Assembly (NCBI GenBank): GCA_964481205.1
Contig: CAYZYE010000005.1
Span: 1 to 49,975 of the forward strand
Direction of reading: 5' to 3'
Source: an uncultured Anaerolineae bacterium
Lineage (GTDB): Bacteria > Chloroflexota > Anaerolineae > JAFGEY01
DNA: 49,975 nt
Part shown: one piece after another, positions 1 to 18,011 of the stretch
How positions within the stretch are numbered: position 1 is the stretch's first letter
Layout: every line of letters starts with the position of its first letter
Notes under the pieces: generated by a model
What the model was told of the DNA's origin: nothing
Seen by the model: only the letters and a program-made list of their open reading frames with translations
Databases searched by the model: none
Position numbers and translations under genes: made by a program

Positions 1-201
1 GGTGAACTCGGTCAGCGGCTCGAAAACGCCCAACACGTACACGTCCAGATCGTCGCCATCCGGCGCGGGGCAGCCCGGTACAAAGCCATAGTTGACCGGG
101 TACCAAATATCGTACCGGGGGTGCTTGCTTCCCAGCGGCCGGTCGATCCGGCAAGCGACCATTTTATTCAAAAAGGTTATCGACGGTTTGTACGAATCCA
201 T
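1..201 (-). CDS. inorganic pyrophosphatase family protein (5' part; runs off window start)
   Basis: Manual translation from ATG at 201: MDSYKPSITFLNKMVACRIDRPLGSKHPRYDIWYPVNYGFVPGCPAPDGDDLDVYVLGVFEPLTEFT; contains the YPVNYG...DGDxLD PPase signature. Not in the ORF track. Confidence 0.8.
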   Translation of the reverse strand, partial: MDSYKPSITFLNKMVACRIDRPLGSKHPRYDIWYPVNYGFVPGCPAPDGDDLDVYVLGVFEPLTEFT

Positions 202-223
202 TCAACTCTTGAAAGACTCTAGC

Positions 224-418
224 CGCAGAGAACGTCGAGGCTCTATTATAACATACACAAAATGCCACCAACTTTTGGCTCTGCGCCTCTGCGTCTCTGC
301 GTTGAACTCTAAATTTCACCAACCAACCTGGCATCTACCGAGATTATCCTGTGTTTATGAATAGCTACGATGTTACTGGATGTTTTATCTCTTTGCGATC
401 TCGGCGCTCTCTGCGGTT
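224..418. repeat. cluster of CGCAGAG/CTCTGCG REP-like repeats (hairpin-forming)
   Basis: CGCAGAGAACGTCGAG (224-239), CTCTGCGCCTCTGCGTCTCTGCG (279-301), CTTTGCGATCTCGGCGCTCTCTGCGGTT (391-418); related copies at 9044-9068 and 46731-46758. Confidence 0.6.
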
Positions 419-425
419 GGCGGGC

Positions 426-1832
426 TTAGGGGCCGGCGACAATCTGTGTAAAATAGTTCGCTATGGCCTCAAAGTTGAGACCGCCGAACAGGATGGCGGA
501 CGCCAGGATGAGCAAGGCGGCAAGCGACTCCGCGGCGATTGGCGTGGACGGCTGTTCCGGCGTGCTATCCTGGCACATCGCGGCGATCCATCGCCCGCTC
601 GACAGCCAGGCCGCGCACAGCCCGACCATAGTCGCGCCGATGCGCCAGCGATTGCCGTCTGCGGCCGCGATCTGGAAAAAGCGCCACACCCCCAGCGCGC
701 CCGCCGTCGGCGGAGCGCCGGCCAGGCTGAGCAGGCACAAGATGGCGACTGCGGCGACCCAGGGATGCCGGCGGCGCAAAGCGGCCAGATCGCCGAACGA
801 CGCGCCCGGATCGAGCGCCGTGATCACCGTTCCGAGGCCGAGCAGCCCGGCGCTGCCGCCGAACAGTGTATAAAACACGAGACCCCAGCCATCGGCCTGA
901 CCACGTTGGAACGCTGCAACCAGGACAATGATCGACAGCCCCGGCGTGGTCAAGGCGATACCCCGCAAGACGTCGCCGGGCGTGCGCGCGCGCCAGGCGA
1001 CGAGGTGCCCTGTTCCAAAGAGCAGTGTACCCAGGATGGACAGCAAGGCGAGGTGCGGGGCGTACAGCACGCCGACCAAACGGCCCAGCGCCGCGATCGC
1101 CGCCCCGGAGAGGATTGTCGCCCGGAGCAGCCCCAGCGGCGCGCCCGACGCTTTATCGCCGGGGCGCGGGCACAGTATGCCCAGTGGAATGAGCACTCCC
1201 CCCAGGATGAGGCCCAGCCCCAACAGGGCCAGCGGGTTTGACTCGCCGCCCGGTTGCGAATTCAACCGCTCCGCCATCAAGTTGAGGAACCAGGCGCCGG
1301 TCGCGCCGTAGAGCAGCGCCGCGCCAAATAAAAAATGCCCCAACCCGACGCCGTGGACGACAAAATACCGCCAGGCGACGTTGGCGCCGCTCAAGGCGTC
1401 GAGCGCCAGATAGAGCATCGCCAGGCCGAGGAGCAGCGACAGCAAGTGTGTGGCTCGAGCGACGACCATTGCGCTGGTCACACCCAAGAGAATCAACGCC
1501 AGGTCGCTGCCGCGCCGAGGTCGCGCCGGGGTCGCTTCCCGCCCCAACTCGATCAAGATGGAAACCACACTGACGCTGCAAAAAAAGAGCGTCCACAGTG
1601 TGCCGGGGCCGTCGCCGATCAGCATCCCTTGCACCGAACCGCCCTGACCGCTAAACAGCACGATCAAGTCCAACGCCGGCGCGACAACGAGGCCGGTCAG
1701 GGCAAGCCAGGCCAATCGCTGCGCCCCGACGCCCCACAGGTCGAGCAACAAAACGCCAATTGCCGCGCCAACCAGGATCAGCATTGGGATTAAATTTGCC
1801 ATTTGGAGAGGCATTGTGGGCATGTTGAACAC
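426..1832 (-). CDS. nuoN: NuoN-like antiporter-type membrane subunit, highly divergent
   Basis: 468 aa, polytopic, LSLAGAPPTAG motif, last gene of the nuo order; catalytic Glu/Lys appear absent. Confidence 0.8.
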   Translation of the reverse strand: MFNMPTMPLQMANLIPMLILVGAAIGVLLLDLWGVGAQRLAWLALTGLVVAPALDLIVLFSGQGGSVQGMLIGDGPGTLWTLFFCSVSVVSILIELGREATPARPRRGSDLALILLGVTSAMVVARATHLLSLLLGLAMLYLALDALSGANVAWRYFVVHGVGLGHFLFGAALLYGATGAWFLNLMAERLNSQPGGESNPLALLGLGLILGGVLIPLGILCPRPGDKASGAPLGLLRATILSGAAIAALGRLVGVLYAPHLALLSILGTLLFGTGHLVAWRARTPGDVLRGIALTTPGLSIIVLVAAFQRGQADGWGLVFYTLFGGSAGLLGLGTVITALDPGASFGDLAALRRRHPWVAAVAILCLLSLAGAPPTAGALGVWRFFQIAAADGNRWRIGATMVGLCAAWLSSGRWIAAMCQDSTPEQPSTPIAAESLAALLILASAILFGGLNFEAIANYFTQIVAGP

Positions 1833-1844
1833 TCGCTTGGGTTT

Positions 1845-3290
1845 TTACCAGAAACTGTTTTGAATGCCGGCGTGAATCTCGGCCCCAAGCCGGCGGATCG
1901 ACGGGCCAATGGTGTCTGAAAACCACTGCGGGCGCAGACCGATGATCAGCAGGGCGACGAGGATGGGGAGCGCGAGCGCGGTTTGCGTCGTCGGCGGGGT
2001 GTCCTGGCGCGCGCGCGGCCAGGCGCGGGCCAGCGCCCACGCGCCGATCAGCAGCCCGGCGGCGATCACGCCGTACAAGCCCCAGTCTAGCGCCACATTG
2101 ATCGCTGGCGCGACGTCGGCCTGCCAATGCCAGCGCAGCATGCCGAGTACGAACAAGAGTTGGCCGGCGAATCCGGCCAGGCCGGGGATGCCGATCAGGG
2201 ATGCAAAAGCCGCCCAAGACGCCGCCCGCCCTGTTCCTTGCCGGGGGTCAGAATGGCATATCCACAGCGCGGCCAGCCCCAGCCCGCGCGCCACAAAGGC
2301 GATGACGGCGCCGTGGATGCTCAAGGCTTGCAGCATAAAAATGCCAATCAGCCCCAGCCCCATCTGGGCGACATGCCAGTAGGCCAGCGTTTCATCCAAA
2401 GAGTCGCTGGCGGCCGAGGCAAAGGCGCCATAGAGCAGCCCGGCCGCGCCCAGGACGATCATTGCCGGCGCAAAGCTGGCGGCGGCCAGTGGAAAAAGGA
2501 GCAGGCAAAAACGGATCAGCCCATAGCCGCCCAGGCTGGTCAGCAGGCTGTAGGCGAGTATTTTGGTCGCGGCCGGCGCGTCGCGCTGCGCGTCGGTCAA
2601 CCCGATGTGAAATGGGAACGCTGCGCCAGTGATCAACATTGCCGCCGTCAGTGTCCAAAACATCCAGGCTTGCGCGGGCCAGTCCGGCATTGCCTCGCCG
2701 GCGAAACCGGTTTGTTCTGCCAACAAACCGGCAATGACGACCGCGATCGCGATCGCCGCGCTGACGGCGGCGATTCCCAGGAGCGCGGTGTTGGGCCGAG
2801 ATTTCGTTGAACGTTGAGCATCGTTGTTGAACAAAAAGAACATGGACAACATGGCGATCAGCCAAAAGGCAAAGAACAAGACCAGGTTCAGCGCGGTCAG
2901 CGCGCCCAGCGCGCCCGTCTCGAACACCAGGATCGAAACTGCTTGTCCCTTGTCGAGCTGCGCCCAGGCGAGCAGCAAGGCAAGCGGCGTCAGCAGGGCG
3001 GTCATCATCACCAGGTGCAGGTTGATGCCGTCGATGCCGAGGTAATAGTCGATCCCCAGCGTGGGCGACCACGCCAGCGGCCCATCGACAAACTGCCGGG
3101 GCGCAGCGTCGTCATCGCTCCAGCCCATGTATAAAAAGAGCGCGATGAACAGGCAGGCGGCCGCGGACAAAAAGGTCAGCCAGCGCCAGACCTCGCGCCG
3201 CCTGCCTGGGATCATGGCCGCGACGACGGCGCTCAGAGCGGGCAAAAAAACGATCAAGGTCAAGAGCGGGAAGCCACCCAATTGGTTCAT
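1845..3290 (-). CDS. nuoM: NuoM-like antiporter-type subunit, divergent (start MNQLGGFPLL)
   Basis: LGIDYYLGIDGI, FPFHIGLTDAQRDAP, GGYGLIRF and IPGLAGFAG motifs; ATG at 3290 overlaps the nuoL stop (ATGA). Confidence 0.85.
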   Translation of the reverse strand: MNQLGGFPLLTLIVFLPALSAVVAAMIPGRRREVWRWLTFLSAAACLFIALFLYMGWSDDDAAPRQFVDGPLAWSPTLGIDYYLGIDGINLHLVMMTALLTPLALLLAWAQLDKGQAVSILVFETGALGALTALNLVLFFAFWLIAMLSMFFLFNNDAQRSTKSRPNTALLGIAAVSAAIAIAVVIAGLLAEQTGFAGEAMPDWPAQAWMFWTLTAAMLITGAAFPFHIGLTDAQRDAPAATKILAYSLLTSLGGYGLIRFCLLLFPLAAASFAPAMIVLGAAGLLYGAFASAASDSLDETLAYWHVAQMGLGLIGIFMLQALSIHGAVIAFVARGLGLAALWICHSDPRQGTGRAASWAAFASLIGIPGLAGFAGQLLFVLGMLRWHWQADVAPAINVALDWGLYGVIAAGLLIGAWALARAWPRARQDTPPTTQTALALPILVALLIIGLRPQWFSDTIGPSIRRLGAEIHAGIQNSFW

Positions 3291-4330
3291 TCCTGAAGCC
3301 TCGTTTCTGCGGTTTGGTTGGACCGTTTGCGATGCGCGCGACCGGCGAGGCGGCTTTCCAACCGGAGCAGATATTGCCCCCCGCGCAGCGCCGTTTTGGC
3401 GATTGCATCGCCGAGTCCATTGAACAAACCTGGCAACCGCCAGGCGCGCCGGGATCGCCGGGCAACAAAACATCCGATGTATATTGCCGTCCATAGCGCC
3501 CACAGCGCCCCGTACCAGGCAACCGGAGGCGGCGCGGGCCGAGTCTCGGTCAGCAAGGGATAGATGCGCGCGAGCAAGAGCATACTGCTGGACGGGACGA
3601 CCCAGAGCGCGATCAGCGCGCGCCGGGGGCCGGCCCGAAATGAGTATTGTGTCGCGCGGGCCAACACGCCGGCCAGCGCGCAAATGACAATAATTGTCTG
3701 CGCGGTGTGGAGGGGCAGCAGCCGTTCCGGGGCCAGGGTCGCAGAACCAAGATGGTCGATCGATGCCGAGGCAAATGTTTGATCGATCATTGCCGTCGCC
3801 AGCAGCAGACAAAGGTCTGCGCCCAGCGAGGCGATGGGCGACGATGCACGCCGTGAACTCGACGTCCACATGATCCACCCACTCAGCGACCAGCCCAGCA
3901 GCAAGACCCAAAAGTTGTCGGCAAACTCGAGCAGCAGCAAAATAGCCAGCGCGCCATTCAGACGGGCGAGGGTGCGGCGGCGGGAGCGCGCTGTGGCGCT
4001 GCGCGCGACATAGAGGTGGATGAACAGCCCAACGGCGACGGTGGTCGAGGCCGCGAGGATCGAGATGGCGTCTACTCTGAGCCGGAGGGCGATTTGAATA
4101 AAGGCGGCGCCCGACCACACTCGCAGCCAGGGCAGCGCCACAGATCGTCCGACCAGACCGGGTTCGATGATCTGGCCCCACAACAGCGGCATAATGATCA
4201 AGCCCGCGCCCACGACCGCGCCGCAAGCGACCCAGTTTTGCAACCGGCGTGTGAGCCGGTGGCCGATCAGCCCGTTGATCGACGCGCCGATCAGGGGCAG
4301 TAGGATGGGCAGCCACTCGATGTACTTCAT
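3287..4330 (-). CDS. nuoL: NuoL-like subunit, shortened to 347 aa
   Basis: N-terminus matches NuoL (LPLIGASINGLIG, LRVDAIS, VGLFIHLY, ADNFWVLLLGW); position between nuoK and nuoM; about half the usual length. Confidence 0.75.
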   Translation of the reverse strand: MKYIEWLPILLPLIGASINGLIGHRLTRRLQNWVACGAVVGAGLIIMPLLWGQIIEPGLVGRSVALPWLRVWSGAAFIQIALRLRVDAISILAASTTVAVGLFIHLYVARSATARSRRRTLARLNGALAILLLLEFADNFWVLLLGWSLSGWIMWTSSSRRASSPIASLGADLCLLLATAMIDQTFASASIDHLGSATLAPERLLPLHTAQTIIVICALAGVLARATQYSFRAGPRRALIALWVVPSSSMLLLARIYPLLTETRPAPPPVAWYGALWALWTAIYIGCFVARRSRRAWRLPGLFNGLGDAIAKTALRGGQYLLRLESRLAGRAHRKRSNQTAETRLQE

Positions 4331-4332
4331 TT

Positions 4333-4611
4333 TTAGCTGTTCTCACCCGGCCTGGAAACCGGGTACGTCAGGGCCAGGGCCACCCCAACCGCCAACTCGA
4401 TCACGGCGATGGTCAGAATGACCAGTGTGATCACCTGGCCTTCCCAATTTTGAAACCAGCTCGCCAGCGAGGCCAGGGCCAGGTTGGCGGCGTGCAAGAT
4501 CAACTCGACGCCCATCAGGATGATCAGCGGGTGCTTGCGCACGGCGACGATCATGACGCCGAGGACAAACAAAAGCATACTCGAAAATAGATAATGGTAC
4601 GGAGTGATCAT
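4333..4611 (-). CDS. nuoK: NADH-quinone oxidoreductase subunit K
   Basis: 92 aa, 3 TM segments, LFVLG..RKH..MGVEL..EGQV..IEL.VG; both conserved Glu present. Confidence 0.9.
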   Translation of the reverse strand: MITPYHYLFSSMLLFVLGVMIVAVRKHPLIILMGVELILHAANLALASLASWFQNWEGQVITLVILTIAVIELAVGVALALTYPVSRPGENS

Positions 4612-4624
4612 GTATGATCCTCAC

Positions 4625-5167
4625 TCAAGAATCTCGCGCCGATCTCGACAACCGGGCCACGATCACCAGCCCGATCAGCAAGAACAGCCCGATCAGTTCA
4701 AAAGGAACGAGGTTGTTAGCCAGCAATTCCTGGCCCAGCGCCGGGATGTATTCTCCCTGGACGGCCCACAGCGGGGGTGATTGGAGAACGGCGGCGCCAA
4801 TGCGCCCCCGGACGATCGCCCAACCGGCGACGGCCGCCAAGATCAAGGCGAGCGGCACAAAGACGAGCAGTCTGGCGAGATTTGGCCGCACCGGGGCTGT
4901 TGTTTTCGGGGACTCGGGGCGCGTCGGTTGAGCGGCGAGGTCGAAACGTTTTGCGCCCCAGATCAGGGCGCTCCCGCTCAAAAAGCAGAAAAAGAGTTGG
5001 AGCGCGGCCAGAAATGAGGCATCGAGGAGAAAATAGAGTCCGGCCAGAGCGGTGATCGAGAGCAAAAACGCACAGATGCCGGGTATGATTTTTTTCAAAA
5101 GCAGCACGCCGGCCGCGCCGGCGAGGGCCAGCGCAACCAGTGGGACGAACAGGATGGTCACGATCAT
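4625..5167 (-). CDS. nuoJ: NuoJ-like subunit, divergent (start MIVTILF)
   Basis: Hydrophobic 180 aa; LYFLLDASFLAALQ and LGQELLANNLVPFELIGLFLL match NuoJ; ATGA overlap with nuoI. Confidence 0.8.
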   Translation of the reverse strand: MIVTILFVPLVALALAGAAGVLLLKKIIPGICAFLLSITALAGLYFLLDASFLAALQLFFCFLSGSALIWGAKRFDLAAQPTRPESPKTTAPVRPNLARLLVFVPLALILAAVAGWAIVRGRIGAAVLQSPPLWAVQGEYIPALGQELLANNLVPFELIGLFLLIGLVIVARLSRSARDS

Positions 5168-5481
5168 GATCCGGTCTCCCTGGTTTGGAGCGCGTGTTCT
5201 GGGCAGACCAGGACGCAGATGGCGCAGTGCATACAGCGTTGGATGTCGATGCGGATCGCGGTCTGACCCTGAATAACGATGCAGTGAGTGGGGCATGCGT
5301 CCACGCAGCGCCGGCATGCCGTACATCGCGTTTGGCCGTCATCGTCCTCGCGCAGCGCCGGCGGGCCGCGAAAAGGCAGCGTTGATGGCGCGGCAGGTGG
5401 TTTTTGGATGCCGCGTCGCCAGACGAGGCGCATCGCTTGCCCAAGTTGGATGAGGTGGTTCAAATAGCTATCAATGGACAT
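5164..5481 (-). CDS. nuoI: NuoI-like 2x[4Fe-4S] subunit (start MSIDSYL, 105 aa)
   Basis: FRGPPAL...CTACRRCVDACP and CMHCAICVLVCP ferredoxin motifs. Confidence 0.85.
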   Translation of the reverse strand: MSIDSYLNHLIQLGQAMRLVWRRGIQKPPAAPSTLPFRGPPALREDDDGQTRCTACRRCVDACPTHCIVIQGQTAIRIDIQRCMHCAICVLVCPEHALQTRETGS

Positions 5482-5486
5482 GTTGT

Positions 5487-6350
5487 TCAACGTGTCGCGA
5501 TCAGCGCCGTGACGATCAGGTTCAACGCGGATAGCGGGATCGCGATTTTGAAAACGGTTTGGACATGTTTGTTCGAGACGGCAGGCGGCAGCGCGGATCG
5601 CGCCAGCGTCCACACCAAGGCGATCAGCCCTACCTGGAGCGTCGTGTACAAGACGGCCAGCCACGGGACTCGGTCGACGAACGGCCCGCCGCCTCCGCCC
5701 ATAAAGAGCGCGCTCGTCAACAGGGCGCGGTTCAAGGTCAATGCTTGGCCGCTCCAACCGGCCTGCGTCTGCGCAGTCCAGGCCGGAGGCCGGGCGCAGA
5801 TGAGCCACAAGAGAAACGCCGCCGGTTGTCGCCAGGCGAACCAGCCCAGGCCGTTCCATTTTCGCTGCGCCTCGAGCCAGGCCGTCAGTCGCAAACTGCC
5901 GGGTTTTACGGCCAAAAGCAAGCTCAAGACGATGAGTAGCATGGGGATCGCGTTGACAAGATGCGTTTCCAGGGTGGAATGGTGCGCGTTCCACCTTGCC
6001 TCGCCTTGTTTTTTGAGCGGGAATTCGGCGCGCGCGATCAGGATGGCCTCGCCGGCCCATTGCAGGGCCAGCGCGTAGAGCAGCGCCGCGCTGCTGTCGC
6101 CCGGCAGCCGCCAGGAGGACGATTGCGGCGCGGACAGGTTGGCCGGCGCAAGTGGAATGACCGCGCCGGCCAGTAACGCGACAACGATGACCGGCCAATC
6201 CCGGCGGCTCAATCGAGGCGCAACCCGGCCGGCGGGGCGCTGATGAAAGCGTCCGCCCAGCCATTGCTCCCAAAAATGATGTCCAACCAGCAAGAGGACA
6301 TAAAACAGCAACCAGACGGCCAATTGGGCGATCCAGGCGGGGTTGTTCAT
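5487..6350 (-). CDS. nuoH: NuoH-like membrane subunit, strongly divergent
   Basis: 287 aa polytopic protein between nuoCD and nuoI; W..WRQP.AF, LF.GGG.GP and W-K..IPLS..NL-type remnants. Confidence 0.7.
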   Translation of the reverse strand: MNNPAWIAQLAVWLLFYVLLLVGHHFWEQWLGGRFHQRPAGRVAPRLSRRDWPVIVVALLAGAVIPLAPANLSAPQSSSWRLPGDSSAALLYALALQWAGEAILIARAEFPLKKQGEARWNAHHSTLETHLVNAIPMLLIVLSLLLAVKPGSLRLTAWLEAQRKWNGLGWFAWRQPAAFLLWLICARPPAWTAQTQAGWSGQALTLNRALLTSALFMGGGGGPFVDRVPWLAVLYTTLQVGLIALVWTLARSALPPAVSNKHVQTVFKIAIPLSALNLIVTALIATR

Positions 6351-7849
6351 TGCGCGGCCCCGGCAATCGAAATGTCCAGACTGTCCAGGATGAGTGGGAG
6401 GCGCGCGGCGGGCGTTCCTGCGGCGATCAGGGGCAGCATGGATAGGTTGGCCAGGGACGGCGCGCGAATGTGAGCGTACTGTAATCGATCGGCGCCGTTG
6501 GCGCAGAGATAAATGCCCAATTCGCCGCGCGCGCTTTCAATGGCGGCATATATCGCGCCGGCCGGCAAGGTTTGGGGAAGGGCCGGCTGCCGGGGGAGGG
6601 CGAAATGGTTGACCTCTCCCTGTTTCAGTTGGGTCAGCGTTTGCCGGATGAGGCGCAAGCTGGCCTCGATCTCGGCGACGTGGACCAGGTAACGCGCCCA
6701 GGCGTCGCCTGACTGTGCGGTTATGACCGGGACATCCAGCTCGTCATAACCGGAATAGGGCAAAGCGCGACGCACGTCATAGGATACGCCCGTCGCGCGC
6801 AGGCACGGGCCGGTTGCGCCCAGCCCCAGGGCCGTGCCGGGATCGATCACGCCAATGTCCTTCCAGTGCGAGCGAAACTCGGAACTTGAGGTCAAGAGGC
6901 GGTCGATATCGACCAACAAGGTGTCCAGGGGGGGCAGCAGCGCGGCCGGCGACAGGCCGGCGTCGAGATCGCGGGCCAGCCCGCCGATGGCGATAATGTC
7001 CGGGGTGATGGGGTTGCCGCCCAGGCGCTGAAAAAAATCGAGGATGGTTTGGCGTCCCTGCCACAGGTAAGAGATGACGGCCAGGTTTGCCCCGTACAGG
7101 TTTTGCACGCAGCGCGCCAACCAATAAAGATGGGAGGCGATCCGTTGCAGCTCGGCATAGATGACCCGCAGCTGCCGCGCTCGTCTCGGCGGCGTAACGC
7201 CAAGCAGTTTTTCGATGCCTAGCGCGTAAACCAGGTCCGTTTGCATCGCCGAAAACCCGTCCATCCGCGCGGTGAGCAGGATGGCGCGGTGGTAGGGCCA
7301 TTGGGTCAGTTTGTTTTCCAGGCCGATGTGCCTGTCGCCGAATTCGACCCGGATGCCGGCGACGCGCGCCTGGCGCTGTTCAATGTCAATGTGCCACCCC
7401 TCAAGGCTGGTTGGGCAGCGCGAGCCGATCTCCCACCGCGTCCAGGCCTGGCCTCGTTCATCCTGGGTGGACGCTTTTTTGAGCAGCGGGCGCGGGTCGG
7501 GATGCCCGTTGAATTCGATGCCCCACAGGTCGCGGGCGCGGCGTTCGCTCCAATTTGCGGCCGGCCAGACCAGGGCCAGGCTGTCCGGCGCGGGCGAGGT
7601 GTTGACGCACAGCCGCAGGCGCCGGCGGTGGGACAGTGACCCAAGTTGGTAGTGTATTTGCTGCGGCGCGCGGGCGGCCGTGAGCAGCAGGTCGTAGCGG
7701 GTTTCCGGCTCGTCGCGCAAAAATTCGGCGACCTGCCCCAGGTAGGCCGACTCGACGTGCAGCGCCGGATTGGCGTTTTGCGCCGCCAGCGTGAACGAGG
7801 CGTCGGGAAAGCGTGTTTTGAGCAGATCGACCAGGCGGCGCTCGCTCAT
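6347..7849 (-). CDS. nuoCD: fused NuoC/NuoD-like protein (start MSERRL, 500 aa)
   Basis: NuoC motif WPAANWSERRARDLWGIEFNGHPD; NuoD motifs IEKLLGV, AELQRIASHL, GPCLRATGV.YDVR, ESARGELG, IRAPS..NL; ATGA overlap with nuoB. Confidence 0.9.
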   Translation of the reverse strand: MSERRLVDLLKTRFPDASFTLAAQNANPALHVESAYLGQVAEFLRDEPETRYDLLLTAARAPQQIHYQLGSLSHRRRLRLCVNTSPAPDSLALVWPAANWSERRARDLWGIEFNGHPDPRPLLKKASTQDERGQAWTRWEIGSRCPTSLEGWHIDIEQRQARVAGIRVEFGDRHIGLENKLTQWPYHRAILLTARMDGFSAMQTDLVYALGIEKLLGVTPPRRARQLRVIYAELQRIASHLYWLARCVQNLYGANLAVISYLWQGRQTILDFFQRLGGNPITPDIIAIGGLARDLDAGLSPAALLPPLDTLLVDIDRLLTSSSEFRSHWKDIGVIDPGTALGLGATGPCLRATGVSYDVRRALPYSGYDELDVPVITAQSGDAWARYLVHVAEIEASLRLIRQTLTQLKQGEVNHFALPRQPALPQTLPAGAIYAAIESARGELGIYLCANGADRLQYAHIRAPSLANLSMLPLIAAGTPAARLPLILDSLDISIAGAAQ

Positions 7850-8280
7850 AGCGCGCTCCGGTGCGTTTTTTGCCGTGACAGGTTCGACAGGGCGTGGTAC
7901 AGCGCGTTGGGGTGCGGCGGGCAGCCGGCGATCCGGGCGTCGACGGGGAGCAAATGTTCGACGGCAATGGTGTCGAATATGGCGCCCGAGATGGCGCATA
8001 CGCCGTAAGCGATGACCCACCTGGGTTGGGCCAACTGTTGGTACAGCGCGTCGAGGTGCGGGCAGATCGCCGGCGATATGCGCCCGGCGACGATGAGCAG
8101 GTTGGCCTGGGCGGGAACCAGGTCGTATGCGCCGCCGTCGACGGCGGGCCAGCCGGGGCCGAGGGTAGCCAGTCCGCAGCAGCCCAGATCGAGCAGGAGG
8201 GGACGGATCGCCGGTTGGGCGACGTTGATCTTGCGACGTTGCTGCATTTTGCGCCGGGGCTTGGAAGGCGAGGCGATCAT
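7846..8280 (-). CDS. nuoB: NuoB-like Fe-S (N2) subunit (start MIASPSK, 144 aa)
   Basis: LGCC, LIVAGRI, VIAYGVCAISG and GCPPHP; all four N2 Cys ligands present. Confidence 0.85.
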   Translation of the reverse strand: MIASPSKPRRKMQQRRKINVAQPAIRPLLLDLGCCGLATLGPGWPAVDGGAYDLVPAQANLLIVAGRISPAICPHLDALYQQLAQPRWVIAYGVCAISGAIFDTIAVEHLLPVDARIAGCPPHPNALYHALSNLSRQKTHRSAL

Positions 8281-8315
8281 TTTGGCTGGCTCCGATCGAG
8301 CTGGGGCAGAAAAGG

Positions 8316-8582
8316 TCATTCGGCGTTTTTGAAAATATAGAACACGCCCGCCGCGAGTAAAGTCACAAACAGGGCAGCGGCGGTGAGGGCGCGTTTTTGG
8401 GCGACCGCGGGCAGGCCGGCCCATGGCAAGAGCCACACCAGGCCCGCCAGGATCAACACGGCCATCAATGTCCAGGGCGGAAAAGGCGTTGCGTCGGTTT
8501 GCCGGTGTGCGTCCTGAAAAAAGCGCCACATTGCCGGCAGCGCGATGCAGGATAACAGCGTCAGGGTGAAAAATATGGTCAT
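8316..8582 (-). CDS. nuoA: NuoA-like subunit, divergent
   Basis: 88 aa, 3 TM segments, LLPWA and G.FYIFK end motifs; first gene of the operon. Confidence 0.65.
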   Translation of the reverse strand: MTIFFTLTLLSCIALPAMWRFFQDAHRQTDATPFPPWTLMAVLILAGLVWLLPWAGLPAVAQKRALTAAALFVTLLAAGVFYIFKNAE

Positions 8583-8786
8583 ATTCTTGGTGTCTCTTGA
8601 TGTTTCTAGCCACCATACGTTCTGTCATTGCGAGCGTCTCCAGGATGCCTATGGCGTCTTTCCGTCAAACAGAAACGCCCAAGTTTCTGCTCCAAGGGGA
8701 TTGACAAATCCCAGTCAGCGAGCCGGTACTGCGCCGTCTGCCTGACGCCGTCTGTGTACGACGGTGCCGTTTGCACAAAATCTCGT

Positions 8787-10545: not shown

Positions 10546-11511
10546 TTACTCCCAATCTCGTTCTGCCTGGGCATAGAGCTGGTACCGATAAAAAGGCACG
10601 CGCGGGATGCGCAGTTCAAAGCGTACCCAGGTGTTGGGTTCGATGTCTTGTTGTGGGACGAATGTCGCTCCCAGGCTGACAATGTGCCCGCTGGCGTCTT
10701 GGAGCACTCCGGCCACGCTAATGTTTTTGATCTTGAACGGGTTGTTGTTGGCGGCGCGCCCGACCACGCGCACGCTGTCGGCGCTGTCATAGTAAAAACC
10801 AATGTTGCTCAATACGATTGTGGCCGACTCGCGTCCGGTTGGCCGGCCGTCGGGGTGCAGGACAAAGGATTTGACGCGCCGCGCCGCGATTTCGACGCGG
10901 AATGGACATTCTTCGCCGGGGCCGAGCAGCAGGAACGGAAATTCGACGTCGATGGGGCCGTGCCTAAAGTCTTGATCGTCAAAGAATGTGGCGTTGACGC
11001 CCACCGCTTCATACGTTTCGGCGCTGTCGTTGCGGGCAATGCCGGTGACGAGATAGGTGCTGTTTTCTCCGGCGCGGTTGGCGCTGACGATCAGCGTGAT
11101 CGGCGGGCCAGGGTCCTGGTCTTTGATTCTGGTCATGGCCGGTGTGGGGGTTTGCACCGGCGCTGGCGTTGCCGGCGGCCGAGTCGGCGCGGGGGTGGGC
11201 GTTTGGGTTGGCGTTTCGGTCGGCGTGGGTGTTTCGGTAGATGTTGGACCGAGCGTCGGCGTGGCGGTGGGGGTCGGCGTGGCGGTTGGGAATGGGGTAT
11301 AGGTGGGCGGAGGGGTGTAGGTGGGATAGGGCGTATAGGTTGCCGCCGGCGGCGCGTCGTTTTGTTTTTCGACGACGATGCGCGTCACTTGGACCTCGCG
11401 AATGACTTCTTGGGTGACGATCACGGTCTTGGGTGTGGCGCAAGAGGCCAACAATGGCATGGCGATCGCCAGGAGGGCAATGTGGATCGTGACGGCGAAT
11501 GTTTTTTTCAC
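10546..11511 (-). CDS. lipoprotein with Pro/Thr-rich linker and two FxLYD-like beta-sandwich domains
   Basis: Lipobox LLASC; (PT)n low-complexity tract; two repeats of the form V.G..RN...V.V.A.F.D..G. Confidence 0.7.
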   Translation of the reverse strand: MKKTFAVTIHIALLAIAMPLLASCATPKTVIVTQEVIREVQVTRIVVEKQNDAPPAATYTPYPTYTPPPTYTPFPTATPTPTATPTLGPTSTETPTPTETPTQTPTPAPTRPPATPAPVQTPTPAMTRIKDQDPGPPITLIVSANRAGENSTYLVTGIARNDSAETYEAVGVNATFFDDQDFRHGPIDVEFPFLLLGPGEECPFRVEIAARRVKSFVLHPDGRPTGRESATIVLSNIGFYYDSADSVRVVGRAANNNPFKIKNISVAGVLQDASGHIVSLGATFVPQQDIEPNTWVRFELRIPRVPFYRYQLYAQAERDWE

Positions 11512-14573: not shown

Positions 14574-16439
14574 TTAGGCATACTCGCGTACCCAGGCGAT
14601 GTCCAGTTCGGCCAGTTTGGCCTCGGTGGGCTGACCGCTGTCTGGGTCCCAGCCCATCATGCCATAGTACAGTTTTCGCGCCTGGTCGAGTGTTTCCGGC
14701 ATGACCGGCTTTTCGTTCAGGGTTTTGGTTTTGTGGTAGGCAGCGACGCGCGGCGGGAGCACGTCATCGGCTTTGCTCAGACCCTCGCGCAGGTTAAAGA
14801 CGCGCGCCATGGTCACGCCGCGTTCTCCGGCCTTGATCAGTTCCCAGACGTTTGTTTTCCACCCGGTGATGGCGCGGATCAGCTGCACGATTTGATCGCG
14901 CGACCAGGGGACAAACATGCAGCAGCAGATGTGGTTGTTGATCCAGGCCCAATTGGTCGAGATGGTGTAGGCGCGCACTTTGTGCGCGTTGAGTTCGGTT
15001 TGCGGCACCGATTCGTAGAGGCCCAGGCTTTGCATATCTTCGCCCAGCGGGTTTTGCGCCAGGCCGCCATCCCAAAAGTTGTGCATATGATCGGCGCCGG
15101 TGGGCGAAACGGCATATCCCAGGGCCTGGCCGTGGCGCGTGCGACATTCGTGCATGGGGAACGGCTGCTTTTTGACGTCGAGGACAAAGGCGCGGGCGGC
15201 GTCGCCGATCTTGTCGGCGGCGCGAGTGGGGCCTTGGGCCAGCAGGTCGCCCAGCCCTCGACGTTCGCAGATTTGCCGCGTCAGTTCGACCATTGCCGCT
15301 CCGTTGCCAAAGTTCAGGGCCAGGCCGCCGCTATCTTGGGTGTTGAGCAGCCCGTTCTCAAAACATTCCATGGCAAAAGAGACGGTCATCCCGGTCGAAA
15401 TCGTGTCCAGGCCATAGGCGTTACAAAGTTCGTTGGCCTTGGCGATCGCGCGCAGGTCATCGACGCCGCAGTTGGAGCCAAACGCGCCGACGGTTTCGTA
15501 TTCGGGGCCGCCGTATTGCGGATCGACTTGATAGTCTTTGTCGTCGACCGCGACCACGCGCTTGCAGCGGATGGGGCAGGCGAAACAGCCGCCCCGGTCG
15601 ATCAAAATGGTGTCGCGCATGGCCTCGCCGCCGATCTTGGCCGCTTTCTGAAACTGGCCATCTTGAAAGTTGCGGGTGGGCAAGGCGCCGATCTCGCTGA
15701 GGCCGAGCAGTCCGCCGCAAGTGCCCAGGTCGTGCATACCCCAGGCTTTTTCTTTCCAGTTTTGCGCCATCCATTTAGCCAGCGCTTTGAGCGCGCCGGC
15801 GTCGGCCAGGGGGACGGGGGTGTTGCCTTTGGCGGCGACGCATTTGAGGTTTTTCGACCCCATCACTGCGCCCATGCCGGTGCGGCCGGCGGCGTGTTTG
15901 AGGTCATTGATCACGCAGGCATAGCGCACCAGTTTTTCGCCGCCCGGCCCAATCATGGCCAGACGGGCGCGTTTTTCTCCCAACTCGGCGCGCACGGCTT
16001 TTTGGCATTCCAGCGTGGTCATTCCCCACAGGTGGCCGGCCGGGCGGATTTCGACCTGGCCGTGGTTGATCCACAGGTAAACCGGCGTGGGCGACTTGCC
16101 ATAGATGACGATCGCGTCAAATCCGGCGTGTTTGAGTTCGGCGCCGAAAAAGCCGCCCACGTCGGCCTCGCCATAGCCACCGCTGAGCGGCGACTTGGCC
16201 CCGACGGCGCTTCGCCCGGCCCCGGCGACGGCGACGCCGGTGAGGACGCCGGTCGCAAAAATCAGGACATTGTCGGGGCCAAGGGGGTCGGCGCCGGCGG
16301 GTACGTGTTTGAGTGTATAGTAGCCGATAAAGCCGTTTCCGCCGAGGTAGCGCCGGTAAAAGCTCTCCGGCGGTTCTTCGATGTTGAACGTGCCTCGAGT
16401 TAAATCGACATGCAAAATTTTACCAGTGTACCCATTCAT
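14574..16439 (-). CDS. aor: aldehyde:ferredoxin oxidoreductase (tungstopterin family)
   Basis: KSPLSGG, AGRTGMGAVMGSKNLK, CFACPIRC, GPEYET, GLDTISTG; AGGAGG RBS. Confidence 0.93.
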   Translation of the reverse strand: MNGYTGKILHVDLTRGTFNIEEPPESFYRRYLGGNGFIGYYTLKHVPAGADPLGPDNVLIFATGVLTGVAVAGAGRSAVGAKSPLSGGYGEADVGGFFGAELKHAGFDAIVIYGKSPTPVYLWINHGQVEIRPAGHLWGMTTLECQKAVRAELGEKRARLAMIGPGGEKLVRYACVINDLKHAAGRTGMGAVMGSKNLKCVAAKGNTPVPLADAGALKALAKWMAQNWKEKAWGMHDLGTCGGLLGLSEIGALPTRNFQDGQFQKAAKIGGEAMRDTILIDRGGCFACPIRCKRVVAVDDKDYQVDPQYGGPEYETVGAFGSNCGVDDLRAIAKANELCNAYGLDTISTGMTVSFAMECFENGLLNTQDSGGLALNFGNGAAMVELTRQICERRGLGDLLAQGPTRAADKIGDAARAFVLDVKKQPFPMHECRTRHGQALGYAVSPTGADHMHNFWDGGLAQNPLGEDMQSLGLYESVPQTELNAHKVRAYTISTNWAWINNHICCCMFVPWSRDQIVQLIRAITGWKTNVWELIKAGERGVTMARVFNLREGLSKADDVLPPRVAAYHKTKTLNEKPVMPETLDQARKLYYGMMGWDPDSGQPTEAKLAELDIAWVREYA

Positions 16440-16481
16440 TTTTTTCCTCCTGTTGGCTTACGCTTGGTCGGGTGGCGACGA

Positions 16482-18011
16482 TCATTGGATGAATGACCAG
16501 GGCAGCGGCGTGTTTTCATCTCGAACCGGGTTGGCGGCGAGGTCGATCTCGCATTTTTCCAGGGCCTGACGCCACGCTTTGGACGACGTGCCCTGTAGCG
16601 CCGTCAGGACGCGCCCGATGCGGCGGTCGCCGCGCGCCAACAGCCCCTGAATGACCGCCCACCTGGGGCTTTCGCCTTTGAGCGCAATGTGTTGTCGTTT
16701 GAGTTGCGCGTCGAGTCGCTTGAGCCGCGCGTCGAGCACGGCGGTGGGCGTCATTGTGACGCGCTGAAATGGAGTGTGCGCCTTGGGTACAAATGGCGTC
16801 ACGTTGGCCGTGATTTGGCCGGGAAAACGGGCCGCGACCTGGGCGCACAGTTGGGCGATGGCGGCAATGTCATGGTCGGTCTCGGTGGGCAGGCCGATCA
16901 TAAAATACAGTTTGAGTCGTCGAAACCGGTGGTGCGCGGCGCGTTCGGCGGCGTGGAGCAGGTTGGTTTCGGTGACGCCTTTGCGGATCGAGCGCCGCAA
17001 GCGTTCGCTGCCGGCTTCGGGGGCCAGGGTCAATGTTTGCGCGCCGCTTTCGGCCAGCGCTTGCAGCAGCGATTCTGACAGGGGCGCGACTCGGAGCGAC
17101 GACACGGAGAGCCGCGCGCCCAGCGCCCGCAGTTTGGAGACCAGCTCGTCGATCGGCGCATAGTCGGACACGGCGGCGCCGACCAGCCCGATTTTGTTGC
17201 GCTGCGTCAGCCCATATTTGGCCTGTTCCAGGATCGACTCGACGCTGCGCTCGCGTTTGGGGCGCGTGGTGAACCCGGCGAGACAGAATTGGCACCGGCG
17301 GCTGCACCCGCGCGAAATTTCGATCAGGTGCATATCGCCAAATTCGGCGTCGGGGGTGTGAATGACCGTCGAGGTCGGGTGATCGTCCAGGCGGCGCACC
17401 CATTGGCGCGTGACCGGTGGTGGTTCTGCGCCGGGGTGGAGCTGCGGCGCGTATACGCCGGGGATTTGCCCCAGCGCCGACCACAACAACTCGCGCGGTT
17501 GGGACGCATTTTCGATCAGCGTCTCGACGAGTGGTTCGAGTACCGGTTCGATCTCGCCGATGACAAAGGCGTCGATCAGGTCGGCCAACGGCAAGGGGTT
17601 GGCCGAAACGGCCGGCCCGCCGGCGATGACGAGCGGCCAGTTTTGGTCGCGTTCGCCGGCGCGCAGGGGGATTTTGGCCTGACGCAGCGTTTGCACCACG
17701 TGCGCATAATCCATCTCGAACGAGATCGAAAAGGCGATCACCCCAAAATTGCCGATCGCGCTTTGGCTTTCGATGGATACGATCGGGGCGCCGGGTTTGC
17801 GGTGCGGCTGCCAAAAGGCGCGTTCGCAAACGATGTTCGGGTAAGCGTTGAACAGGCGGTAGACGGTTTGAAAGCCCAGGCTGGACATGCCGACGCGGTA
17901 CGTGTTGGGATAGACCAGGGCGACCGGCAGTTTGCCGCCCCAGTCCTTGATCACGACGCCATGCTCGCGCGCCAGGATGCGGCGCGCGTGTTCAATGTAT
18001 GACCATTTCAT
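16482..18011 (-). CDS. radical SAM protein with N-terminal B12-binding-like domain
   Basis: EISRGCSRRCQFC (CxxxCxxC); YPNTY.VGMSSLG; LAPEAGSERLR; YFMIGLPTE. Confidence 0.9.
   Translation of the reverse strand: MKWSYIEHARRILAREHGVVIKDWGGKLPVALVYPNTYRVGMSSLGFQTVYRLFNAYPNIVCERAFWQPHRKPGAPIVSIESQSAIGNFGVIAFSISFEMDYAHVVQTLRQAKIPLRAGERDQNWPLVIAGGPAVSANPLPLADLIDAFVIGEIEPVLEPLVETLIENASQPRELLWSALGQIPGVYAPQLHPGAEPPPVTRQWVRRLDDHPTSTVIHTPDAEFGDMHLIEISRGCSRRCQFCLAGFTTRPKRERSVESILEQAKYGLTQRNKIGLVGAAVSDYAPIDELVSKLRALGARLSVSSLRVAPLSESLLQALAESGAQTLTLAPEAGSERLRRSIRKGVTETNLLHAAERAAHHRFRRLKLYFMIGLPTETDHDIAAIAQLCAQVAARFPGQITANVTPFVPKAHTPFQRVTMTPTAVLDARLKRLDAQLKRQHIALKGESPRWAVIQGLLARGDRRIGRVLTALQGTSSKAWRQALEKCEIDLAANPVRDENTPLPWSFIQ

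Follow-up and report, generated by a model that had tools for sequence, protein, structure and literature searches.

Does an operon that carries the complete gene set of a complex I-like enzyme also encode a working proton-pumping quinone reductase? This question is raised by a stretch of 49,975 nucleotides from contig CAYZYE010000005.1 (assembly GCA_964481205.1) of an uncultured Anaerolineae bacterium (JAFGEY01), which was analyzed over its entire length and is referred to here as the window. Positions 426-8582 of the window carry, on the minus strand, a ten-gene operon nuoA-B-CD-H-I-J-K-L-M-N, in which the complex I core subunits A, B, C, D and H to N are all recognizable and stand in the nuo gene order. 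Our analysis indicates that the operon is probably a repurposed or vestigial "pseudo-complex I", which automated annotation would mistake for a working NADH dehydrogenase. The genes are the following:

8316..8582, minus strand: nuoA-like, a membrane protein of 88 residues at the nuoA position, with an ATGA overlap with nuoB
7846..8319, minus strand: nuoB-like, 157 residues (Pfam Oxidored_q6, 60 bits; NCBIfam NuoB, 88 bits)
6347..7849, minus strand: fused nuoCD-like, 500 residues (Pfam Complex1_30kDa and Complex1_49kDa; NCBIfam NuoD, 245 bits)
5487..6350, minus strand: nuoH-like, 287 residues (Pfam NADHdh, 31.8 bits, residues 209-282 only)
5164..5481, minus strand: nuoI-like ferredoxin subunit with two [4Fe-4S] clusters, 105 residues (Fer4 families; NCBIfam NuoI, 41 bits)
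4625..5167, minus strand: nuoJ-like, 180 residues (Pfam Oxidored_q3, 44.5 bits)
4333..4611, minus strand: nuoK-like, 92 residues (NCBIfam NF004320, 66.6 bits)
3287..4330, minus strand: nuoL-like, truncated, 347 residues against about 600 (no Pfam match; NCBIfam NuoL over the first 230 residues only)
1845..3290, minus strand: nuoM-like, 481 residues (family profile aligned to Paracoccus denitrificans NuoM, 8qby_M)
426..1823, minus strand: nuoN-like, 465 residues (family profile aligned to Mycobacterium smegmatis NuoN, 8e9g_N)

Most gene junctions in the operon are four-base ATGA start/stop overlaps and the frames are unbroken, so the genes appear intact and translationally coupled. The nuoB start lies at 8319, and position 8280, given in a first-pass annotation of this DNA, is an internal ATG. 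Pfam families match B, C, D, H (the last 75 residues only), I, J, K, M and N, and neither A nor L. Only NuoK passes its NCBIfam equivalog cut-off (66.6 against 57); the other scores and cut-offs are 245 and 360 for NuoD, 88 and 116 for NuoB, 41 and 113 for NuoI, 35 and 305 for NuoH, 195 and 264 for NuoM, 83 and 333 for NuoN, and 49 and 408 for NuoL. The N-module genes nuoE, nuoF and nuoG were found neither in the operon nor elsewhere within the 50-kb window. The high G+C content of 1-8600 (for example 1845-4346) creates long overlapping open reading frames (ORFs) in wrong frames or on the opposite strand, such as one of 833 residues that runs through nuoL into nuoM, so ORF length alone is misleading in this region.

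The operon is not a singular case. A search with NuoCD recovered 46 relatives at 42-54% identity, followed by a gap down to ordinary NuoD and NuoCD proteins at 35% or less. Most of the 46 are C-D fusions of about 500 residues, and one comes from an NCBI metagenome-assembled genome (MAG) named Anaerolineae bacterium. These relatives and their operons, labeled "NADH-quinone oxidoreductase subunit C/D" in public sources, are referred to below as the family.

[quoted passage not shown] The window holds the complete set of cysteine ligands for cluster N2 (four, in NuoB) and for clusters N6a and N6b (eight, in NuoI). The N2 ligands Cys47, Cys48, Cys108 and Cys133 lie in the NuoB motifs GCCG (8173-8184), GVCAISG (7984-8004) and GCPP (7915-7926), and the NuoI motifs are CTACRRCVDACP at 5290-5325 and CMHCAICVLVCP at 5200-5235, in a short form of the protein that has neither the inter-cluster insertion nor the C-terminal extension. 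The first-pass annotation had pointed to both CxxCxxCxxxCP motifs of NuoI and to the CC..C..CPP pattern of NuoB, and it had placed all of them correctly. We compared ligand and other positions that are invariant in a small canonical Chloroflexota set (control sets of 5-6 sequences). The N2 ligands are kept in 60/60 cells (four cysteines in each of 15/15 family members) and the N6a/N6b ligands in 48/48 cells (eight cysteines in 6/6 family NuoI sequences), against only 33% of the cells at other canonical-invariant positions of NuoB and 16% of those of NuoI (Fisher p = 5e-16 for NuoB, with the non-ligand cysteine column included, and 3e-35 for NuoI). That non-ligand column, the fifth canonical-invariant cysteine of NuoB, is kept in 0/15 members. 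The cysteine ligands are selectively retained far beyond chance, and the loss of ligands at the pace of other sites, named in the first-pass annotation as the outcome that would speak against it, was not seen. Its proposal that three clusters remain under selection stands for N2 and falls for N6a and N6b, because nuoI is absent from 5 of the 12 orthologous operons that reach its position (those of loci L082, L085, L141, L169 and L170). Only N2 is universal in the family.

Around the N2 cluster, the residues that would bind the quinone head group have been replaced. The NuoCD loop GSRCPTSLEG (residues 142-151; 7397-7426) lies opposite GPQHPSTHGV of Nqo4 from Thermus thermophilus, with His34 changed to Cys and His38 to Leu. 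The HMMER alignment to Nqo4 starts at Nqo4 residue 55 and the register of the loop was counted back from there without gaps; aligning the family jointly with canonical NuoD sequences led to the same register. The HMMER alignment further places ARMDG (7256-7270) opposite PRMDY of Nqo4, changing Tyr87 to Gly, and VQNLYGA (7088-7108) opposite LLDLGA, changing Asp139 to Asn. Replacement of the His38 and Tyr87 loops, first proposed from the window alone, extends to the whole family: position 38 is aliphatic and position 87 is Gly, Ala or Ser in 24/24 members, while the Asp139 position is variable and keeps Asp in 2/24. Aligned over the 24 members, the family has the motif G-x-R-(Y/F/L)-P-(T/S)-S-x-(D/E/N)-G in place of GPQHPxxHG. 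The surroundings of N2 are kept, namely Arg84 and the "SHL" motif with His129.

Two further features of the window NuoCD turned out to be private. The cysteine in the former His loop, which the first-pass annotation had singled out as new, occurs in 1/24 members, the others having Tyr, Phe, Leu or similar residues, and was rejected as a candidate ligand. The C-terminal AGAAQ (6350-6364, within SIAGAAQ) is present as described, and is no trait of the family either: the other 32 sequences of the alignment have GEVDR/GEVER-type ends with a terminal Arg, the family form being (G/A)E(V/A)ER. We also rejected as a diagnostic a gap of about 20 residues in NuoD (Nqo4 305-337), since some canonical NuoD proteins lack this segment too.

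NuoCD is nonetheless a member of the complex I lineage. Its AlphaFold2 model, built on the family alignment, has a predicted local distance difference test (pLDDT) of 86.9 and a predicted TM-score of 0.91, with pLDDT below 50 for loop residues 142-150, and its best Foldseek match in the PDB is Escherichia coli NuoCD (TM-score 0.89). Its PDB sequence scores are 183 bits for Nqo4, 130 for MBS (6u8y_L), 96 for MBH and 84 for FHL, and among NCBIfam models NuoD (NF004739, 245 bits) exceeds FpoD (193 bits). NuoCD contains no CxxC, only five isolated cysteines. The absence of CxxC pairs and the low MBH and FHL scores bear out the first-pass claim that this is not a group 4 hydrogenase.

The membrane subunits next to the quinone site tell the same story as NuoCD. 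In NuoH, the QP..F motif is followed by LWLICARPPAWTAQTQ... and then by ...GGGGGP, and the acidic AExNRxPFDxxExE stretch is absent (region 5682-5828). Between QP..F and the GGW motif, we estimate a shortening of roughly 18-20 residues relative to E. coli NuoH. Loss of the acidic loop between transmembrane helices 5 and 6 (TM5-6), which the first-pass annotation had already described, was found again here and throughout the family, in sets of 9 and of 24 members; there is no conserved acidic residue among the 24 NuoH-like sequences. Alignment by sequence reaches TM7-8 only, the final two helices, which match residues 251-322 of E. coli NuoH (profile against PDB). The AlphaFold2 model of NuoH (pLDDT 84.3) matches NdhA/NuoH/ND1 over its full length at a TM-score of about 0.7 and about 16% identity. 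Since confident models match complex I chains, NuoCD and NuoH are genuine structural homologues rather than chance ORFs. A separate public JGI/ENA contig of 5210 bases (P0121) encodes a NuoH-like protein with one difference from the window, Val for Ala in RQPAAFLL, so a near-identical genome must have been sampled elsewhere.

Canonical NuoA carries the motif FDxExxFLxPW, with acidic residues ahead of PW. The NuoA-like protein keeps LLPWA (8418-8432) with no acidic residues before it. It has no Pfam or NCBIfam match and was assigned by position and by LLPWA, and it recurs at the same position with partly conserved sequence in 8 orthologous loci. NuoJ has lost the canonical TM3 motif VYAGAIMVLFLFV; its TM3 is 3-4 residues shorter and contains no Tyr in all 9 family members. 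NuoK in the window keeps both membrane glutamates (GVELIL, 4495-4512; VIELAV, 4387-4404), and in the family the TM2 Glu is found in 5/9 and the TM3 Glu in 7/9 members; the E-channel carboxylates are otherwise lost.

One might ask whether the complex could still reduce menaquinone at a shallow or alternative site without pumping, like a membrane-bound ferredoxin:quinone oxidoreductase. The NuoH fold with its QP..F tunnel-entry motif and the N2 surroundings with Arg84 and the His129 "SHL" motif, all of which are kept, would suit such an enzyme, and mutants of the Tyr87 equivalent are active with short-chain quinones (as cited in PMC4758237). However, three head-group ligands were lost together, the β1-β2 loop was remodeled and the cavity loop of NuoH was deleted, and lineages without NuoI would have no electron supply. 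We therefore think an uncoupled quinone reductase quite improbable.

The antiporter-like subunits add a point that the first-pass annotation had missed, namely that, judged by its residues, the proton-translocation machinery is erased as well. In the window NuoM, the TM5 Glu is replaced by Leu (2853-2873), the TM7 Lys by Thr (2586-2633), the TM8 Lys by Thr/Ser (2520-2546) and the TM12 Glu by Gln (2154-2174); in 6/6 family NuoM sequences, these positions hold Leu/Val, Thr, Asn/Thr and Gln/Asn, respectively. The window NuoN has Ala for the TM5 Glu (1410-1430) and has lost the Lys at TM7 (1179-1208), TM8 and TM12 (684-713), and a profile of family NuoN against 8e9g_N shows Ala, Ser/Gly, Pro and Leu/Val at the four equivalent positions. 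In NuoL, mapped to 8e9g_L, the TM5 WE reads WS (3875-3898), the TM7 Lys is replaced by an Arg that is invariant in the family (3647-3661), and the HAATMVTAG region is unrecognizable in the family. The window NuoL additionally ends after about TM9, without TM12 or the lateral helix. A tblastn search with a full-length family NuoL found only residues 2-291 in the window and no remnant of the missing half; together with the ATGA overlap with nuoM, this indicates a clean deletion, not a frameshift.

These losses bear on an energy converter with a new acceptor, in which a ferredoxin-fed N6a-N6b-N2 wire would work with a rebuilt ion path, as in MBS/MBX, Fpo-like enzymes or Ehr. The first-pass reading, a wire feeding an acceptor other than quinone, amounts to this alternative; its basis, the Fe-S wire, is intact in the window, whereas the membrane arm has been stripped and nuoI is dispensable. 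A conserved family loop, GxRYPTSxDG, stands in place of the His loop, the NuoK glutamates are kept in the window and in most members, and there are earlier examples of NuoD homologues that perform redox chemistry without quinone or Ni ligands (PMC4758237; see also the discussion of Ehr in PMC6349859). Against this, three antiporter-like subunits have lost all their canonical Lys and Glu residues, NuoH its loop, and NuoA and NuoJ their motifs. Some lineages do without L, M, N and I, NuoH has gained no conserved charged or Cys/His residues, and the suggested link to an aldehyde:ferredoxin oxidoreductase (AOR) is not conserved. The erased proton machinery thus argues against an energy converter that merely uses a different acceptor, which we regard as improbable. 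Without the head-group triad, the NuoH loop and a charged membrane-arm axis, canonical quinone reduction and canonical proton pumping are excluded as far as sequence can tell.

The family is rare in sequence data. Among 1.84 billion representatives, an exhaustive search with the NuoH profile gave 17 clusters at E<=1e-30 and, with the threshold relaxed to E<=1e-10, 38; a word-indexed protein search with the same profile gave 4 proteins only. A metagenome scan with family-specific NuoB patterns yielded 7 family loci among 80. A search of genome contigs with the NuoCD family alignment returned, among the matches listed, only canonical NuoC/D loci (at 37% identity or less), which were used as controls. 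In a neighbor-joining tree, the family is monophyletic on a long stem and consists of a main clade and a smaller second clade; its internal NuoD distances are as large as those among the sampled canonical NuoD sequences, which include Syntrophales and Anaerolineae. The operons differ in their gene content:

L083, L084 and L087: full gene sets, with a NuoL of about 600 residues
L170: without I only
L086: without L
L092: L with an internal deletion, C-terminal helix kept
Window locus: L truncated
L082, L085 and L141 (second clade): A-B-CD-H-J-K and an L stub of 334 residues; no I, M or N
L169 (second clade): the same as far as K, where the contig ends
L081: A-B-CD and a weak NuoH remnant only

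A, B and CD are present in every locus, and I, L, M and N have each been lost somewhere, although most family members have a complete membrane arm of their own. The reduction of L081 to A-B-CD calls for caution. In L081 and L168 (ENA contig_23254 and contig_136509), larA, Ldh_2, Amidohydro_2, NAD synthase and DPPIV genes are split into 2-3 adjacent ORFs, which look like assembly indel errors; in L168, nuoH and nuoI are called as one ORF of 446 residues.

Is such an operon simply decaying? It could be what remains of a complex I that has no function left, whether a redundant paralogue or the ancestral enzyme of a lineage in which respiration ceased, drifting toward loss with its reading frames not yet broken. 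This vestigial operon is the serious, main rival to a maintained function. The ratio of nonsynonymous to synonymous substitution rates (dN/dS) between L082 and L085 (dS 0.47-1.03) is lowest for B, at 0.15; CD has 0.26, and A, H, J, K and L range over 0.24-0.31. Canonical Chloroflexota nuoB, nuoD, nuoK and nuoI give 0.02-0.06 at dS 0.8-1.0. L082-L085 is the one clearly unsaturated pair, most other pairs having a dS above 1.5, which makes their dN/dS unreliable. The family is thus under purifying selection that is 5-8x weaker than that on canonical nuo genes. It also evolves much faster than the genes that flank many of its operons, since LarA, LarB, LarC and Ldh_2 are 72-85% identical between loci and the nuo-like proteins 40-67%. 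Of all copies, that of the window shows the largest number of private substitutions where the family is otherwise invariant (6 in NuoCD and 6 in NuoH, including the terminal NuoD Arg), which could reflect extra relaxation or merely an isolated branch.

Faster evolution at a dS similar to that of canonical nuo, the repeated independent losses of nuoI, of nuoL (whole, C-terminal half or internal), of nuoM and nuoN and, in L081, of everything past CD, and the private changes and truncated NuoL of the window copy would all be expected of a vestigial operon. Yet no gene, not even those of the "dead" membrane subunits, has a dN/dS anywhere near 1, and about 8 kb of intact, coupled ORFs have been kept in many lineages whose synonymous sites are saturated. 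Moreover, the Fe-S ligands are kept in 108/108 cells while the non-ligand canonical cysteine is lost in 15/15 members, and the substituted residues are themselves conserved, namely Thr, Asn and Gln in NuoM and Arg in NuoL. This conservation, together with purifying selection on all genes, suggests that the loss is old and was followed by long maintenance. On balance, we consider a purely vestigial origin unlikely, though it deserves more weight than the other alternatives.

We instead lean, tentatively, toward a non-pumping, membrane-anchored, non-canonical Fe-S complex whose selected core is NuoB(N2)-NuoCD; the strictly kept Fe-S ligands and the universal presence of A-B-CD point to the N2 head as the selected part. 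This may be a stably maintained "pseudo-complex I", in which catalytic and ion-conducting residues were neutralized in an ancestor and which has long been selected for a different job. For that job, the NuoB-NuoCD head with its Fe-S clusters would suffice, carried by a membrane scaffold that is itself passive. In the family ancestor, Nqo4 His38, Tyr87 and Asp139, the NuoH loop and the NuoA and NuoJ motifs would have been replaced, almost all by uncharged residues, and so would the TM5 Glu, TM7 Lys, TM8 Lys and TM12 Lys/Glu of NuoL, NuoM and NuoN (with Arg at TM7 of NuoL). The NuoB(N2)-NuoCD core would be seated on an anchor of NuoA, NuoH, NuoJ and NuoK with the N-terminal part of NuoL, and the charge-depleted L/M/N arm would be structural and dispensable. 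In operons that have NuoI, as in the window, its two clusters would carry electrons in from a soluble donor of low potential, for example ferredoxin, in the manner of other complex I-like enzymes that have no NuoEFG. The work itself would be done at N2, either by passing electrons to a non-quinone acceptor or by sensing a redox state. Gene content, residue losses, ligand retention, purifying though relaxed selection and the loss of genes by module can be seen in the sequences, whereas the presence of assembled clusters, expression, activity, ferredoxin as the donor, the role given to N2 and the lack of pumping are inferences.

Several points weigh against such a maintained complex. Cysteine retention may reflect only a folding requirement of NuoB and NuoI, and lineages without NuoI have no obvious electron path to N2. 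Selection is clearly relaxed, the repeated gene losses look like ongoing decay, as in L081, and the window copy itself departs from family-invariant sites more often than any other. The family has no conserved Cys or His that would mark a new catalytic site, and no conserved neighbor gene among the loci points to a donor or an acceptor.

The neighboring genes were examined for partners. The first-pass annotation had suggested a ferredoxin linked to the AOR at 14.6 kb, which we rejected as a partner because unrelated genes lie between it and the operon and no orthologous locus has an AOR. The AOR (621 residues, AFOR_N and AFOR_C) and a following radical SAM protein of 509 residues with Radical_SAM_N2 occupy 14574-18011. 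In the main clade, the nuo-like operon lies between nickel-pincer cofactor genes, all on the opposite strand: larA with an HD gene, Ldh_2 and two Amidohydro_2 genes upstream, and a glycosyltransferase, larC, larB and a larE-like gene downstream. Such lar flanks are found in L084 (7766-9052 and 18443-21509), L081, L086, L087, L092, L093, L168 and L170. A functional link to the lar genes was rejected, as they are on the other strand and absent beside the window operon, L083 and the short-form operons of the second clade. The higher identity of these flanks than of the nuo-like genes suggests that the lar synteny reflects relatedness, not function.

The short-form operons have different surroundings. 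Upstream of them, on the opposite strand, lie genes for a NuoE-like protein (2Fe-2S, thioredoxin-like) and a NuoF-like protein (51 kDa, FMN/NADH):

L085, 4363-8215, opposite strand to the operon: NuoE/F-like cluster
L169, 4223-8090, opposite strand to the operon: NuoE/F-like cluster
L141, about 4950-6660, opposite strand to the operon: NuoE/F-like cluster

These genes sit among 3-4 response regulators, an AsnC-type regulator, an ACT protein and a histidine kinase, a neighborhood that looks like a redox or NADH-linked signaling cluster. They raise the possibility that the family is an alternative or auxiliary subunit set whose partners are encoded at other loci, be they a canonical Nuo membrane arm, NuoEF-like proteins or another oxidoreductase, so that the enzyme would not be defined by the operon by itself. 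An N-module is missing from the operon, NuoE/F-like genes occur a few kb upstream of L085, L141 and L169, and canonical 14-subunit nuo operons are common in Anaerolineales MAGs. However, the NuoE/F-like genes run on the opposite strand, within the regulator and histidine kinase cluster, and most family members have a complete membrane arm of their own. Since the NuoE/F-like genes accompany exactly those operons that lack NuoI, no wire would lead from them to N2. An auxiliary set hence seems very improbable to us.

In L085 (8371-9306 and 14222-15127), as well as L141, L169 and L082, two more genes frame the operon: ahead of it, on the same strand, a radical SAM gene that is 77-78% identical between loci, and behind it a metallo-beta-lactamase-fold gene that is 90-92% identical between loci. 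Both may be co-transcribed with the short-form operons.

Outside the operon, the window has genes for a nuclease, a kinase-like protein, a STAS protein, the AOR, radical SAM and PHP proteins, a WYL regulator, sulfatases, an MFS transporter, a GH95 fucosidase, sugar kinases and dehydrogenases. A polysaccharide and deoxy-sugar utilization cluster occupies 23701-47505, with two sulfatases, the MFS transporter, a xylose-isomerase-like TIM barrel, a GFO/IDH/MocA oxidoreductase, a 2-hydroxyacid dehydrogenase, two URO-D-like proteins, a class II aldolase, the GH95 fucosidase, an SDR and an FGGY kinase, which is consistent with a heterotrophic Anaerolineae lifestyle. At 10546-11511, a predicted secreted or lipoprotein-like protein of 321 residues contains a long Thr/Pro-rich low-complexity linker, PTPTATPTLGPTSTETPTPTETPTQTPTPAPTRPPATPAPVQTPTP.

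The immediate consequence concerns annotation, because metabolic reconstructions of Anaerolineae MAGs that count this operon would infer a respiratory NADH or ferredoxin dehydrogenase that pumps protons, which its sequence does not support. With regard to mechanism, the family is a natural mutagenesis experiment in which quinone and coupling residues were replaced and folds, subunit contacts and Fe-S sites persist, and it thereby separates structural from catalytic constraints on complex I. If the complex is functional, complex I evolution has a further end-point, in that the scaffold could drop energy conversion and yet persist, besides gaining NuoEFG, FpoF or CupA/B. A maintained complex of this kind would be the first multi-subunit pseudoenzyme form of complex I, with a job that may be redox sensing or non-quinone electron delivery.

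By sequence and gene order, the closest known systems are the enzymes without an N-module, namely Nuo11 of Desulfitobacterium and Dehalococcoidia, the cyanobacterial and plastid NDH-1, and Fpo and Fpo-like complexes. The family shares with them the order A-B-C-D-H-I-J-K-L-M-N, the NuoCD and NuoH folds, and the N2 and N6a/N6b ligands. The 11-subunit enzymes, however, keep Tyr87 of the quinone or phenazine site, the NuoH loop and the antiporter Lys and Glu residues and pump ions, whereas the Anaerolineae family lacks all these residues and, unlike them, tolerates the loss of I, L, M and N. In Fpo, the NuoD homologue FpoD lacks His38 and Asp139 only and keeps Tyr87 (PMC4758237). NuoD proteins without His38, Tyr87 and Asp139, with non-hydrogen-bonding replacements, were described from other phyla (Sulfolobus, Nautiliales and Desulfurobacteriales) and read as ancestral, pre-quinone forms (Degli Esposti, 2015; PMC4758237). 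The Anaerolineae family differs in that it also lacks the pumping residues, a loss which that paper does not report for those variants. Its own loss of the quinone ligands is probably secondary, judging from its position as a long-stemmed clade beside canonical NuoD proteins of bacteria whose C and D are fused or adjacent.

Ehr and MBX/MBS are complex I relatives without Ni or quinone sites; the NuoD-like large subunit of Ehr has neither Ni-Fe ligands nor a known substrate site, and a partner oxidoreductase is presumed (PMC6349859). The family resembles Ehr in having a large subunit without Ni-Fe ligands. Ehr complexes, however, are relatives of group 4 [NiFe] hydrogenases with Mrp-like subunits and are thought to translocate ions, whereas the antiporters of the family are charge-depleted; the family has the full nuo order and nests with complex I NuoD in a tree built without Ehr sequences, the comparison with Ehr being made by description. 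Like MBS and MBX of Thermococcales (6u8y), the family is a complex I relative with neither a Ni site nor a quinone site. In MBS, the proximal [4Fe-4S] cluster is reportedly thought to perform the chemistry itself. MBS nevertheless belongs to the Mrp-Mbh lineage, with another subunit set and order and with its ion modules kept, and the D, M and N subunits of the family score lower to MBS chains than to those of complex I. The group 4 [NiFe] hydrogenases (Ech, Hyc/Hyf and Mbh) are the weakest PDB matches, and the family lacks their two CxxC Ni-Fe pairs.

A full-text literature search found no published description of an Anaerolineae family with these substitutions, nor a described subfamily with a known substrate that they match, which the first-pass annotation had named as a result that would overturn it. 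For none of the systems compared here has the loss of quinone ligands been reported together with a full set of neutralized antiporter residues. NdhF3 and NdhD3 of the cyanobacterial NDH-1MS complex offer a partial parallel, as their antiporter-like proton path is partly non-polar and serves a new role in CO2 uptake. In NDH-1MS, the change is confined to a single module, and the remainder still reduces plastoquinone and pumps, whereas in the Anaerolineae family all three modules and the quinone site are affected.

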